A stretch of DNA of 64,000 nucleotides, taken from NCBI GenBank assembly GCA_964361405.1, contig CAYIAA010000002.1, positions 5,299 through 69,298 on the forward strand, in the 5' to 3' direction. Every line of letters starts with the position of its first letter. Position 1 is the first letter of the stretch. Shown one piece after another: positions 5,928 through 44,259 of the stretch. The stretch comes from an uncultured Candidatus Saccharibacteria bacterium (GTDB lineage: Bacteria > Patescibacteriota > Minisyncoccia > Phycocordibacterales > UBA3531). Both the position numbers and the translations under genes were made by a program. Below the pieces are notes generated by a model that searched no databases, had not been told where the DNA came from, and saw only the letters and a program-made list of their open reading frames with translations.

Positions 5928-5972
5928 CTGCCCCATGATTCCAACAGGAATCATGGGGCAGTTTATTATATT
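5928..5972 (+). terminator. rho-independent terminator
   Basis: Perfect 15-bp stem CTGCCCCATGATTCC / GGAATCATGGGGCAG, loop AACA, then TTTATTATATT. Confidence 0.75.
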
Positions 5973-6011
5973 GAACCCTATATGTGTTAAAATTATATCT
6001 AATTCATAAGT

Positions 6012-30992: not shown

Positions 30993-31020
30993 GAAAAGGT
31001 TATTTATACTCTAATTCGGT

Positions 31021-31366
31021 TTTGTGCCGGATAGGTGCTCTTCGCTTCATGCGGGGAGAGGAAAGTCCGAACACTCACACACGGAAGTGTGTAGCAAGGT
31101 AGCGGGTAACGCCCGTCGGGAGTAATCCTAGAGATGCGAACAGAGACGTTGCTCTCCGAAAGGAGAGCAACATCATCTGATAAATCAGATGATGAGTCCC
31201 GACAGAAATGTCGGGAGTGAAACGGCAAAATTCTTACCTGAGTGCAAGGCCGAGTCCCGCCTTTTGGCGGGAAGCGCCGCTTGATCCCCTCGGCGACGTC
31301 GGGACCAGATAGATACCTATCGTTCCGCTTTGAGCGGAATACAGAATTCGGCTTATAGGCACAAAG
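31021..31366 (+). ncRNA. rnpB: RNase P RNA (bacterial type A)
   Basis: P4 halves GAGGAAAGTCCGAAC ... and ... ACAGAATTCGGCTTATAGG; GGTAACGCC ... GGGAGTAA module; P1 pairing TTTGTGCC/GGCACAAA. Confidence 0.85.
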
Positions 31367-31382
31367 CAAGAACTATGAAAAA

Positions 31383-41708: not shown

Positions 41709-42857
41709 CTAACGTAAAACCAATACGCCGCGGGCTTCGAGCTCTTCCTCCGGCCCTTGCGACTCGCCGCTCTCGCGCCGGAGATATCCAGCCGCCGCGA
41801 TCATAGTAGCGTTGTCGGTTGCGTGAGCGGGTGCAGGAAAGAGAACTGGAATGCCATCTTTTTCAAATTCACGCGCAAAGGTCTCCCGAATGCGGCGGTT
41901 TGCCGAGACTCCGCCGCCAACGATGAGGGTCTTTACATCGTGTCGTCGTGCTGCGATGCGCGTTTTCATAAGGAGAACGTCAGTGACTGCTCGTTCAAAT
42001 TCCTCTGCAATGTCAGCTTTGATTGCATCGGTCAATGTCGGGATTTTCTTAACCGCATAGAGAACGGCGGTTTTGAGTCCCGAGAAAGAAAAGTCGAGGT
42101 TGCCACTCCCCGCCATCGGTCGAGGCAAATGAATGAGAAACTTACCCGTGGCGCTCTCCGCAAGTTTTGAAATCTCCGGGCCGCCGGGATAGGGGAGTCC
42201 TAATATTCGCGCAACTTTGTCGAAGGCTTCCCCCACTGCATCATCCCGTGTCTCACCGAGGAGTACGTATTGGCACCAGCCGTGGAGGAGAACGAGCTCG
42301 GTGTGCCCGCCGCTAATAAGGAGGGCAAGTGCTGGAAATATCACCTGCTCGCCTTCCAGGAGCGCTGAAACGAGATGTCCTTCCATGTGGTTTGTTGGAA
42401 TAATACGTTTTTCCCAGAGGACGGCGAGTGCACGCGCGAAGTTGATGCCAACCCAGAGGGCGGGTTCGAGTCCGGGGCCACGGGTTACGGCAATAGCGTC
42501 GATGTACGGGATAGAGATACGAGCCGTGAAGGAAAGAAGTTGATCGGCAAGACCCTCTTCGCGAGAGAGAATTGTGCGTACCATTTCTTCTCTTTCTTGA
42601 CTTGTTTTGACCCGCTCACCGTTTGGGGGTAGGTTCGCATTTTCCAATGCTTTTTCGAGAAGCCTTACGAGATGTTTCACATGTTCGCGTTTTGCGAGTG
42701 TAGGCACCACGCCGCCGAAGGGGGCATGGGTTTTTGTCTGAGAGAACGTGACCTCCGAGAGTATATGAAATTGCGGACTTAAAAGCCCACCTGATCCTTT
42801 CACGATGGCAATCGCCGTCTCATCACAACTTGTTTCAATGCCGAGAATGATTTTCAT
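41709..42857 (-). CDS. tsaD: tRNA N6-adenosine threonylcarbamoyltransferase TsaD
   Basis: ILGIETSCDETAIAIV, GGVVPTLAKREH, HMEGH metal site; about 40-aa C-terminal extension. Confidence 0.85.
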   Translation of the reverse strand: MKIILGIETSCDETAIAIVKGSGGLLSPQFHILSEVTFSQTKTHAPFGGVVPTLAKREHVKHLVRLLEKALENANLPPNGERVKTSQEREEMVRTILSREEGLADQLLSFTARISIPYIDAIAVTRGPGLEPALWVGINFARALAVLWEKRIIPTNHMEGHLVSALLEGEQVIFPALALLISGGHTELVLLHGWCQYVLLGETRDDAVGEAFDKVARILGLPYPGGPEISKLAESATGKFLIHLPRPMAGSGNLDFSFSGLKTAVLYAVKKIPTLTDAIKADIAEEFERAVTDVLLMKTRIAARRHDVKTLIVGGGVSANRRIRETFAREFEKDGIPVLFPAPAHATDNATMIAAAGYLRRESGESQGPEEELEARGVLVLR

Positions 42858-42865
42858 GTGGGATG

Positions 42866-42939
42866 TGAGCCCGGGCCGAGTCGAACGGCCGACCTTTACG
42901 ATGTCAACGTAACGCTCTAACCAACTGAGCTACGGGCTC
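42866..42939 (-). tRNA. tRNA-Val (anticodon GAC)
   Basis: Reverse-complement cloverleaf: GAGCCCG-TA-GCTC-AGTTGGTTA-GAGC, anticodon loop TTGACAT, T-arm GGCCG-TTCGACT-CGGCC. Confidence 0.85.
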
Positions 42940-43013: not shown

Positions 43014-43074
43014 TTATCGCGAACTATATCCTATTCACGAAGCGCGTACAAATATGGTACGGTTCATTCTGTGA

Positions 43075-43164
43075 GGAGGCGTGGCTGAGAGGTTGAAGGC
43101 GCCACACTCGAAATGTGGTATTCGGGGAACCGGATCGGAGGTTCGAATCCTCCCGCCTCCGCCA
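43075..43164 (+). tRNA. tRNA-Ser (anticodon CGA), CCA encoded
   Basis: Acceptor GGAGGCG/CGCCTCC, anticodon stem CCACA/TGTGG, loop CTCGAAA, long variable arm, T-arm GGAGG-TTCGAAT-CCTCC, 3' GCCA; end anchored to the downstream ATG. Confidence 0.85.
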
Positions 43165-43166
43165 AA

Positions 43167-43649
43167 ATGTTAAAAATAAAACCGTTCAAACAAAAACCTT
43201 CATCCTGCGGACCAGCGTCATTAAAAATGGTGCTGGGATATTACGGAGTTACAAAAAGCGAGAAAGAGTTGGGAAGATTATCCGGGTGCACCAAAGCTCA
43301 CGGCACCAAAACCAAAGGCTTGCTTAAAGCTGCCAAGCACTCCGGTTTTACAGGATTCATAAAAGACTTTTCGGACATTAAGGATATACGGCATTACGTA
43401 ACAAAGAAAAAGATACCGGTCATCGTAAACTGGTTTTCGGTAAGCGAAGGGCACTATAGCGTGGTGGCGGGCATAGATAAAGAGAAAATCTATTTAGAAG
43501 ACCCCGAATTCGGACGTATGCGGTCAATGCGACTCAATGATTTCAAGGCCGTCTGGTTTGATTTTTCGTCGCCTTGGCTGAAATCAAAGAGTGATTTGGT
43601 GATACGGAGAATGCCCGTAGTAGTCCCTAAAACGAAAAAGCTTGGTTAG
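43167..43649 (+). CDS. peptidase C39-like (papain-fold cysteine peptidase) domain protein
   Basis: QKPSSCGPASLKMVLGYYG (catalytic Cys region) and GHYSVVAGID (His region); ATG 2 nt after the tRNA CCA. Confidence 0.6.
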   Translation: MLKIKPFKQKPSSCGPASLKMVLGYYGVTKSEKELGRLSGCTKAHGTKTKGLLKAAKHSGFTGFIKDFSDIKDIRHYVTKKKIPVIVNWFSVSEGHYSVVAGIDKEKIYLEDPEFGRMRSMRLNDFKAVWFDFSSPWLKSKSDLVIRRMPVVVPKTKKLG

Positions 43650-43727
43650 GGATTTAGAATTGATTTTTATTGCTAGCTTTGCTAGCGTACACAAGGAAAC
43701 TGAAAAACCAAAAACAGAAAGGAGGGT

Positions 43728-44198
43728 TTGGTGGAACTCTTGCAAACACCAGTAGAGGAGCTTTTAAGAAGGCTCTTTCAAGGGTCAGTAGAATGGTTTC
43801 GCTTTTTTGCGAAACACTCCCGTTGCGTTCACGGCAAGACCAGGCGCGCTTTCAAGGTCACAGTCCTCGGAGTCGAATGTCAGTTGGAGAAGTCACTCAT
43901 GTGTCCGGTCTGTACGGAGCGCTATCTCAATGAGTTCAGCACGCTCTGTGCCTCGTGCGAGCGACCCATCTTTCCCGGGACACCCGTGGGGAAGGCGGGG
44001 TGGGAGGGTGCAACTCATCCATTCATTCATTTGACGAAAGGGTGTTGTGACACCATGGCTCTTTATTGTGGACGATGGGGTGGAGGTAACCTTATCACGC
44101 TCCACGAATTGGACCCGGAGAAGTACTTGGCAGGAACGTCATCGGTGGCGGAGCACGCCTTCAAGTCCCACCGTGGGGTTATCGAGAACGTGGACTAG
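43728..44198 (+). CDS. Cys-rich (putative zinc-binding) hypothetical protein (156 aa)
   Basis: SD AGGAGG then GTG; C-x-H ... CPVC ... C..C ... CC pattern; GC above local average. Confidence 0.4.
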   Translation: MVELLQTPVEELLRRLFQGSVEWFRFFAKHSRCVHGKTRRAFKVTVLGVECQLEKSLMCPVCTERYLNEFSTLCASCERPIFPGTPVGKAGWEGATHPFIHLTKGCCDTMALYCGRWGGGNLITLHELDPEKYLAGTSSVAEHAFKSHRGVIENVD

Positions 44199-44222
44199 TT
44201 ACAGTACCTCGACCCACATCCT

Positions 44223-44259
44223 AAATGGGGGTCATGTCTCAACGACGTGACCCCCATTT
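44223..44259 (+). terminator. hairpin terminator
   Basis: AAATGGGGGTCA-13 nt loop-TGACCCCCATTT followed by CTTTATG. Confidence 0.45.

Follow-up and report, generated by a model that had tools for sequence, protein, structure and literature searches.

The locus lies among housekeeping genes in the window, by which we mean the whole stretch of DNA analysed here (64,000 nucleotides, hereafter 64 kb). Its flanking genes are tsaD, three tRNAs, ftsZ, ftsA, ybeY, hisS and a signal peptidase, and at its centre a tRNA-Ser(CGA) gene is followed by two open reading frames, one for a C39 cysteine peptidase (ORF1) and one for a Cys/His-rich protein (ORF2). Rfam detected nothing but tRNAs at this region; a match to RNase P RNA lies in another part of the window, and no paralogue of either ORF1 or ORF2 was found in the window. 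The features are, in order:

43075–43164, plus strand: tRNA-Ser(CGA) (ARAGORN; Rfam RF00005, 57.4 bits)
43167–43649, plus strand: ORF1, C39 cysteine peptidase, 160 aa, with its ATG at 43167
43191–43193, 43206–43208, 43452–43454 and 43500–43502, plus strand: putative catalytic codons of ORF1 (Q9, C14, H96 and D112, respectively)
43660–43688, plus strand: promoter-like region of ORF2 (–35 TTGATT at 43660–43665, 17-nt spacer, –10 TAGCGT at 43683–43688)
43670–43686: TTGCTAGC-T-TTGCTAGC repeat, within the spacer and –10 region of the promoter-like region
43717–43725, plus strand: Shine-Dalgarno sequence GAAAGGAGG of ORF2, separated from the GTG by 5 nt (AGGAGG at 43720–43725)
43731–44198, plus strand: ORF2, Cys/His-rich protein, 155 aa from the GTG
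44223–44259, no strand assigned: hairpin with a perfect 16-bp stem, in the gap where ORF2 and ftsZ converge

As the initial annotation of this DNA had proposed, the start codon of ORF1 lies 2 nt past the end of tRNA-Ser(CGA) at 43164, Rfam placing the tRNA body at 43075–43161, followed by an encoded CCA. Public gene calls lengthen ORF1 to an in-frame ATG at 43113 within the tRNA, giving a 178-aa product. Because each of the 25 aligned homologues has 'ML' as its first residues at the position of 43167, with Gln9 and Cys14 just behind it (within the first 14 residues), we take 43167, rather than the ATG inside the tRNA, to be the secure start on the strength of this alignment. Downstream, the AGGAGG and the GTG start of ORF2 (at 43731) were found as described. 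The TTGCTAGC-T-TTGCTAGC palindrome also exists, but not at 43679–43695, where it had been placed, and the product of the second gene is Cys-rich as described, although not a 156-aa protein with about 10 Cys: it has 155 residues from the GTG (156 only if counted from a TTG at 43728) and 9 Cys. The hairpin beyond ORF2 (MFE –28.2 kcal/mol, z –7.2; none of 200 shuffles folded equally well) is a likely terminator.

ORF1, whose sequence includes QKPSSCGPASLKMV and GHYSVVAG, matches Pfam PF03412 (Peptidase_C39) with 62.7 bits (cut-off 22, E 4.1e-17) over profile positions 8–121 of 133. It also exceeds the thresholds of PF13529 (Peptidase_C39_2; 42.5 bits, cut-off 24), the profile with which it had been suggested to check the gene, and of the C70 profile PF12385 (41.8 bits). 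Since PF13529 gave a lower score than PF03412, the latter appears to be the better assignment. In alignments, C14, H96 and D112 of ORF1 correspond to C17, H96 and D112 of ComA, and the triad aligns likewise with that of PCAT1; these three residues and Q9 are invariant in the 26 family members aligned. Q9 precedes the Cys by five residues, compared to six in ComA, and falls outside the aligned stretch. The solved structures matched by ORF1 are the peptidase domains of ComA, PCAT1 and LahT, and the phage-protein profiles of PHROGs returned generic C39/ABC matches and a weak endolysin match, and nothing else. The protein has no signal peptide, transmembrane or hydrophobic segment and stops after the domain, at residue 160, and no ABC ATPase is encoded anywhere in the 64-kb window, which bears out the description of the gene as standing alone, without an ABC-transporter fusion. 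Taken together, these comparisons indicate that ORF1 is a genuine stand-alone C39 peptidase, with an active site that is intact as judged by alignment.

The stand-alone C39 family of which ORF1 is an ordinary representative is already known, though uncharacterised. More than 1000 homologues of ∼154 aa were retrieved, which their sources name 'C39 family peptidase' or 'predicted double-glycine peptidase'. Over 100 of those listed (153–160 aa) are 54–71% identical to ORF1 and cover 88–100% of its length. Scanning a single genome for each of 185,579 species located the family in 280 of them, patchily scattered over numerous lineages of CPR, over DPANN archaea (Woese-, Nano- and Iainarchaeota) and over Desulfobacterales. 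Our literature search recovered no paper mentioning COG3271 and none on stand-alone C39 proteins in CPR. The single-domain proteins of CPR and DPANN resemble ORF1 in size (∼154–160 aa), in similarity over the full length and in the invariant residues, the only difference being a slightly longer Lys-rich C-terminal tail in ORF1. The C39 domains of PCAT/AMS proteins (ComA, PCAT1, LahT) share with ORF1 the PF03412 match, the aligned Cys/His/Asp triad, the domain size of ∼150 aa and the upstream Gln, and they are located in the cytoplasm (PMC6363468). Unlike them, ORF1 is neither fused nor adjacent to an ABC transporter, has no GG-leader gene nearby, carries a conserved C-terminal WFDF...RR segment that is specific to its family, and is surrounded by housekeeping genes.

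A different architecture occurs in Desulfobacterales, for example in Desulfosarcina variabilis and Desulforapulum autotrophicum HRM2, where the N-terminal 150 aa of a protein annotated as 'fusion protein N:peptidase-C:desuccinylase' are 55–58% identical to ORF1. As opposed to ORF1, this protein is ∼727 aa long and bears two AstE/AspA-like (M14-like) deacylase domains, also without an ABC transporter; elsewhere the same deacylase region is joined to domains of the LD-carboxypeptidase LdcA. More remote is the pseudomurein endoisopeptidase PeiR (PDB 8z4h), whose C39-like catalytic domain is matched by the C39 family profile at E 2.8e-10, although it scores below PCAT1 and ComA and differs from ORF1 in having an N-terminal cell-wall-binding domain and in cleaving pseudomurein isopeptide bonds. 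We note, moreover, that an archaeal C39-like protein with a non-peptidase activity has been described recently (PMC13642728). It belongs to a different family and has Q-C-H-N in place of the Q-C-H-D of ORF1, yet it illustrates that such functional divergence does occur.

The product of ORF2 belongs to a much smaller family: a search of 5.8 billion clusters yielded only 15 close homologues, and a profile search of 1.84 billion proteins yielded 222 representatives. Twelve residues are conserved (C32, H34, C50, C58, C61, C73, C76, H100, C105, C106, C113 and H125), and as ligands they would fit three Cys3His zinc sites. The N-terminus (30 residues) differs from member to member and, in some, bears a hydrophobic helix. 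The initial annotation proposed to look for a signal peptide and a double-Gly leader; ORF2 lacks the former as well as any conserved leader of the Gly-Gly type. Its 'GGG' (G117–G119), also noted there, is no site of leader cleavage: it corresponds to the conserved CGRWGEGRL of the homologues and lies within a strand of the predicted folded core, in a segment that is modelled as well folded. The AlphaFold model, built from an alignment of 59 sequences, reached a pLDDT of 91.2 and a pTM of 0.79; it has no significant relative among solved structures, the nearest being a weak LIM-like match. Akin to this, the ORF2 profile gave weak matches to LIM domains among PDB sequences (E 0.006–0.03), and Pfam yielded only sub-threshold zinc-ribbon matches and no LIM match. 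Compared to LIM-type tandem zinc fingers, for which the scores are not significant, ORF2 differs in ligand spacing and in its third site; its family also appears to be bacterial and CPR-associated and includes the members with the N-terminal hydrophobic helix. The model and the alignment thus portray ORF2 as an intracellular, LIM-like multi-zinc protein without a characterised relative, and not as a secreted precursor.

ORF2 is probably also a transcription unit of its own, with a predicted promoter, a Shine-Dalgarno sequence and a terminator hairpin. When six upstream regions of ORF2 homologues were aligned, an arrangement of TTGAYT, 17 nt, TAnnnT, ∼35 nt, GAAAGGAGG and the start codon was conserved in four, the remaining two being more divergent, and GAAAGG was invariant in all six. 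As the promoter-like motif and the Shine-Dalgarno sequence are kept though the upstream genes differ, ORF2 seems to carry its own promoter-like region. A strict consensus promoter scan did not call the ORF2 promoter. Among the upstream regions the TTGCTAGC-T-TTGCTAGC repeat shows no conservation, and as an RNA structure the palindrome was not significant (z –0.3).

The juxtaposition of the two genes had suggested in the initial annotation that they form a module, in which a secreted Cys-rich effector is processed or in which the two are an immunity pair; the effector could then be a bacteriocin-like precursor cleaved by the C39 peptidase, and the pair a toxin with its immunity protein. The genes are indeed adjacent, and read-through co-transcription is possible in this genome because they are co-directional, 81 nt apart and lack a terminator in between; in addition, C39 peptidases classically process precursors encoded in their vicinity (PMC6363468). 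Against such a module, a tblastn search with both proteins of all 104 loci fetched recovered the peptidase in 88 and ORF2 in 17, and the two together in L001 only, which is 100% identical to the window (a copy of the same genome), so that among these loci the pair is unique to this genome. Co-occurrence across genomes was the very point on which the pairing had been staked. ORF2 is absent from 80 peptidase loci with flanks of up to 6 kb per side, and about a dozen distinct ORF2 loci have no peptidase in the sequence available, many of these contigs being short (1–3 kb), so that a peptidase gene may lie farther off in those genomes. In the closest distinct relative (L090), ORF2 (73% identity) and the convergent ftsZ (84% identity) have the same arrangement as in the window, but upstream of ORF2 lies the end of a different gene, and neither a tRNA nor a C39 gene. 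Elsewhere ORF2 is found next to genes for GIY-YIG and L33, YceG and HD, an ECF sigma factor, an amidohydrolase or a glycine-cleavage T protein. Nor does ORF2 look like a precursor, being a predicted folded multi-zinc domain with a variable N-terminus, without signal peptide or conserved leader and with its GGG inside the core, and PADLOC defence models matched neither ORF1 nor ORF2. The lack of co-occurrence largely refutes the module, and with the own promoter-like region of ORF2 it leaves a peptidase–substrate or immunity pairing highly improbable.

The position of ORF1 directly after a tRNA raises the further possibility that ORF1, ORF2 or both arrived by horizontal transfer, on a small island inserted at the tRNA-Ser 3' end. 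Several observations point in this direction. The overall GC content of ORF1 (0.433) is the second-lowest of 54 ORFs (z –2.65); the C39 family is patchy; the closest relative has no C39 gene at this position; and in each of five lineages the C39 gene directly adjoins a different tRNA (that for Ser in this window, for Arg in L048, for Phe in L050, for Trp in L059 and for Leu in L076). Furthermore, archaeal and bacterial C39 proteins are about equally similar to each other (mean identity 50%, compared to 51–52% within each domain of life), and for 5 of the 15 archaeal members the nearest neighbour is bacterial, a patchy distribution without archaeal/bacterial separation that is consistent with gene transfer over evolutionary time. 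However, no integrase or other mobile-element gene lies within 5 kb, the last 25 nt of the tRNA-Ser are unique in the window even when 3 mismatches are allowed, leaving no att repeat, and the relatives detected in a scan of viral contigs are only distant ones (≤37% identity). The GC3 of ORF1 is ordinary (z –0.8), which means that its low overall GC reflects a Lys-rich composition, and both the GC (0.544, z +1.2) and the GC3 (z +1.5) of ORF2 are within range; the elevated GC and the acquired module that had been proposed for this locus thus find no counterpart in the composition of either gene or in integrase or att sequences. That ORF2 keeps its ftsZ neighbour in L090 marks it as resident and not as cargo.

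Abutment to a tRNA is, moreover, a general feature of compaction in this sequence set and hence weighs against an island. After 12 of 50 tRNAs, an ORF of at least 100 aa starts between –1 and +11 nt of the tRNA end; seven of the genes that do so are not C39 genes, and in this window tsaD starts 7 nt past tRNA-Val. C39 genes abut tRNAs more frequently than other ORFs do (5 of 81 compared to 7 of 721; odds ratio 6.7, p 0.004), an excess that is only suggestive because C39 genes were the starting point for sampling the loci and the ORF calls are naive. Altogether, we consider an acquired island at the tRNA-Ser 3' end to be quite improbable. A leaderless promoter for C39 genes was likewise contemplated and dropped: a –10 hexamer 6–11 nt upstream of the start was present at 32% of 59 stand-alone loci and at 27% of control ORFs, hence not enriched, and motifs resembling a Shine-Dalgarno sequence occurred at 15% of both, the starts of the control ORFs being naive calls.

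Among 109 immediate neighbours of the stand-alone C39 genes no family is dominant and most are unrelated housekeeping genes. The commonest are ATP-grasp genes, Ddl-like at seven loci (Microgenomates-type) and RimK-like at two (Nanoarchaeota), followed by ABC ATPases, M48 peptidases and radical SAM enzymes with four each. The peptidase genes closest to ORF1 (71% and 69% identity) precede an unrelated 184-aa gene and an NlpC/P60 gene; the NlpC/P60 gene of L091 lies 17 nt downstream of C39. A crude regex scan for GG-leader peptides found none among the small ORFs of the window, and the operon-coupled neighbours of C39 homologues are heterogeneous housekeeping and membrane proteins, with no GG peptides. 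The window was also searched for ATP-grasp, radical SAM, NlpC/P60 and deacylase genes, and none was found.

These surroundings can be accommodated by a family of cytoplasmic hydrolases that act on small non-ribosomal or cell-wall-type peptides or amides, alongside ATP-grasp ligases and M14/AstE-like deacylases, instead of being leader peptidases. Such a role would account for the Desulfobacterales fusion to a deacylase, itself joined to LdcA elsewhere, for the prominence of ATP-grasp genes among the neighbours, for the NlpC/P60 gene adjoining C39 in L091 and for the absence of GG-leader genes near C39 genes, and the profile match to PeiR and the reported non-peptidase C39-like protein of archaea (PMC13642728) agree with it. 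The best sequence matches nevertheless remain the GG-leader peptidase domains of PCAT1 and ComA, the ATP-grasp link extends to only 9 of ∼59 loci, mostly of one clade, this window holds no ATP-grasp, deacylase or NlpC gene, and the neighbours are for the most part unrelated housekeeping genes. We therefore treat the hydrolase role as a tentative and rather unlikely alternative. A broader synthesis is more doubtful still. It would make the C39 protein part of a cytoplasmic peptide processing that is exchanged among ultra-small episymbionts and tied to ATP-grasp enzymes and deacylases, and not to bacteriocin export, with expression from near-leaderless mRNAs in several lineages and, separately, with ORF2 as a new three-zinc fold; the exchange is suggested by the identity of ∼50–65% between CPR and DPANN members without separation by domain, and the near-leaderless mRNAs by C39 start codons that lie 0–4 nt past five different tRNAs.

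In light of all these observations, ORF1 and ORF2 are quite probably functionally unrelated genes that have become adjacent by chance in a compact genome, probably of CPR/Patescibacteria. With ORF1 and ORF2 as unrelated neighbours, ORF1 would be a soluble cysteine endopeptidase of clan CA, consisting of a single C39 domain and competent in catalysis. The gene most likely shares a transcript with tRNA-Ser, because 2 nt leave no room for a promoter, and processing of the tRNA 3' end would create the 5' end of the mRNA at or next to the AUG, so that ORF1 may be translated from the processed message without a Shine-Dalgarno site. Judged by homology, the enzyme most likely acts on peptides in trans, within the cytoplasm, and cuts behind small residues at P2/P1 as in sites of the Gly-Gly type, a specificity that we assume by analogy with the characterised domains, and its substrate would be encoded elsewhere and not by ORF2. 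The product of ORF2, in turn, would be small and intracellular, with about three zinc sites of the Cys3His kind; it comes from a small family seen so far in CPR-like genomic contexts and most likely serves as a structural zinc-finger adaptor of LIM-like type.

The ORF1–ORF2 pair should accordingly not be carried forward as a candidate effector/immunity system. Instead, the value of the locus lies in its separate parts: a highly conserved, transporter-less C39 family that is common to CPR, DPANN and (as a fusion) Desulfobacterales, and a confidently predicted multi-zinc family, represented by ORF2, without a structural relative in the PDB. Beyond these two genes, a start codon follows within a few nucleotides after about one quarter of the tRNAs in these reduced genomes, which implies that tRNA–mRNA co-transcripts are made and that translation proceeds from them without a Shine-Dalgarno leader.

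Within and between the archaeal and bacterial members, the mean identity of the C39 domains from the fetched database loci (L010 to L089) and the window is about 50%, and the tree of the family does not mirror the split between the two domains of life. ORF1, the stand-alone C39 cysteine peptidase of the window, shares 62% identity with a Nanoarchaeota copy and 64% with its best bacterial match. In nine loci the stand-alone C39 gene is immediately adjoined by a gene for an ATP-grasp ligase, and these neighbours fall into two different subfamilies:

L021:5404-6477, L053, L054, L058, L063, L070 and L086, Ddl-like ATP-grasp neighbour of C39
L062:6466-7371 and L087:6466-7218, RimK-like ATP-grasp neighbour of C39

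In Microgenomates-type bacteria the ATP-grasp gene is co-directional with the C39 gene and often overlaps it; in two Nanoarchaeota the two genes are convergent. The C39 domain is also found fused, in a Desulfobacterales protein of about 727 residues in which it is combined with two AstE/AspA-like (M14-like) deacylase domains and is 55-58% identical to ORF1. The fusion gene of Desulfosarcina variabilis (L042:6001-8181) has counterparts at about 20 other Desulfobacterales loci (range L014 to L047), and other proteins combine related deacylase modules with LD-carboxypeptidase (S66) domains in a fusion.

As to ORF2, the Cys/His-rich predicted zinc protein encoded downstream of ORF1, several distant members of its family in alignment A4 (P0151, P0183, P0212, P0221, P0232, P0276 and P0282) carry an N-terminal hydrophobic, TM-like helix, so that some of the family may use the domain at the membrane. 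The window ORF2 has an amphipathic helix at residues 7-29 in place of this TM-like helix. At one database locus (L008:189-2270), a gap of 12 nt separates an ORF2 homologue from the ECF sigma factor gene downstream of it, and next comes a DUF5667 gene, which, at a guess, may encode an anti-sigma factor; the pairing with an ECF sigma factor is a single case, absent from the other loci.

The arrangement of genes around tRNAs was surveyed in the window and 80 related loci (864 kb), counting same-strand ORFs of at least 100 aa whose start codon lies between -1 and +11 nt from a tRNA 3' end. Features noted in the window are:

31019-31371 (+), RNase P RNA of the bacterial class A (132 bits), which confirms that the window is of bacterial origin
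42857-42939 (-), tRNA-abutment site
43014-43074, 61-bp divergent intergenic region, with tRNA-Glu, tRNA-Val and tsaD (-) on one side and tRNA-Ser and ORF1 (+) on the other
43075-43169 (+), tRNA-abutment site

A strict scan called no promoter in the intergenic region. By eye, its minus strand reads TTGTAC - 17 nt - TATAGT just upstream of tRNA-Glu.

At L071, only the last 32 nt (5969-6000) of the tRNA-Phe that is intact at L050 (1648-1720) directly precede the C39 start codon. Either an insertion into the tRNA may have left this fragment as an attR-like remnant, or the tRNA may have decayed.

By the above measure, an ORF begins right after 12 of the 50 tRNAs. The housekeeping gene tsaD starts 7 nt past tRNA-Val(GAC) in the window, and the A of the ATG at L059 is the terminal A of the tRNA CCA; abutment was likewise observed at L048, L050, L071, L076, L086 and L087. 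Such placement of start codons at tRNA 3' ends implies that these reduced genomes make co-transcripts of tRNA and mRNA, with translation that is SD-less or near-leaderless.
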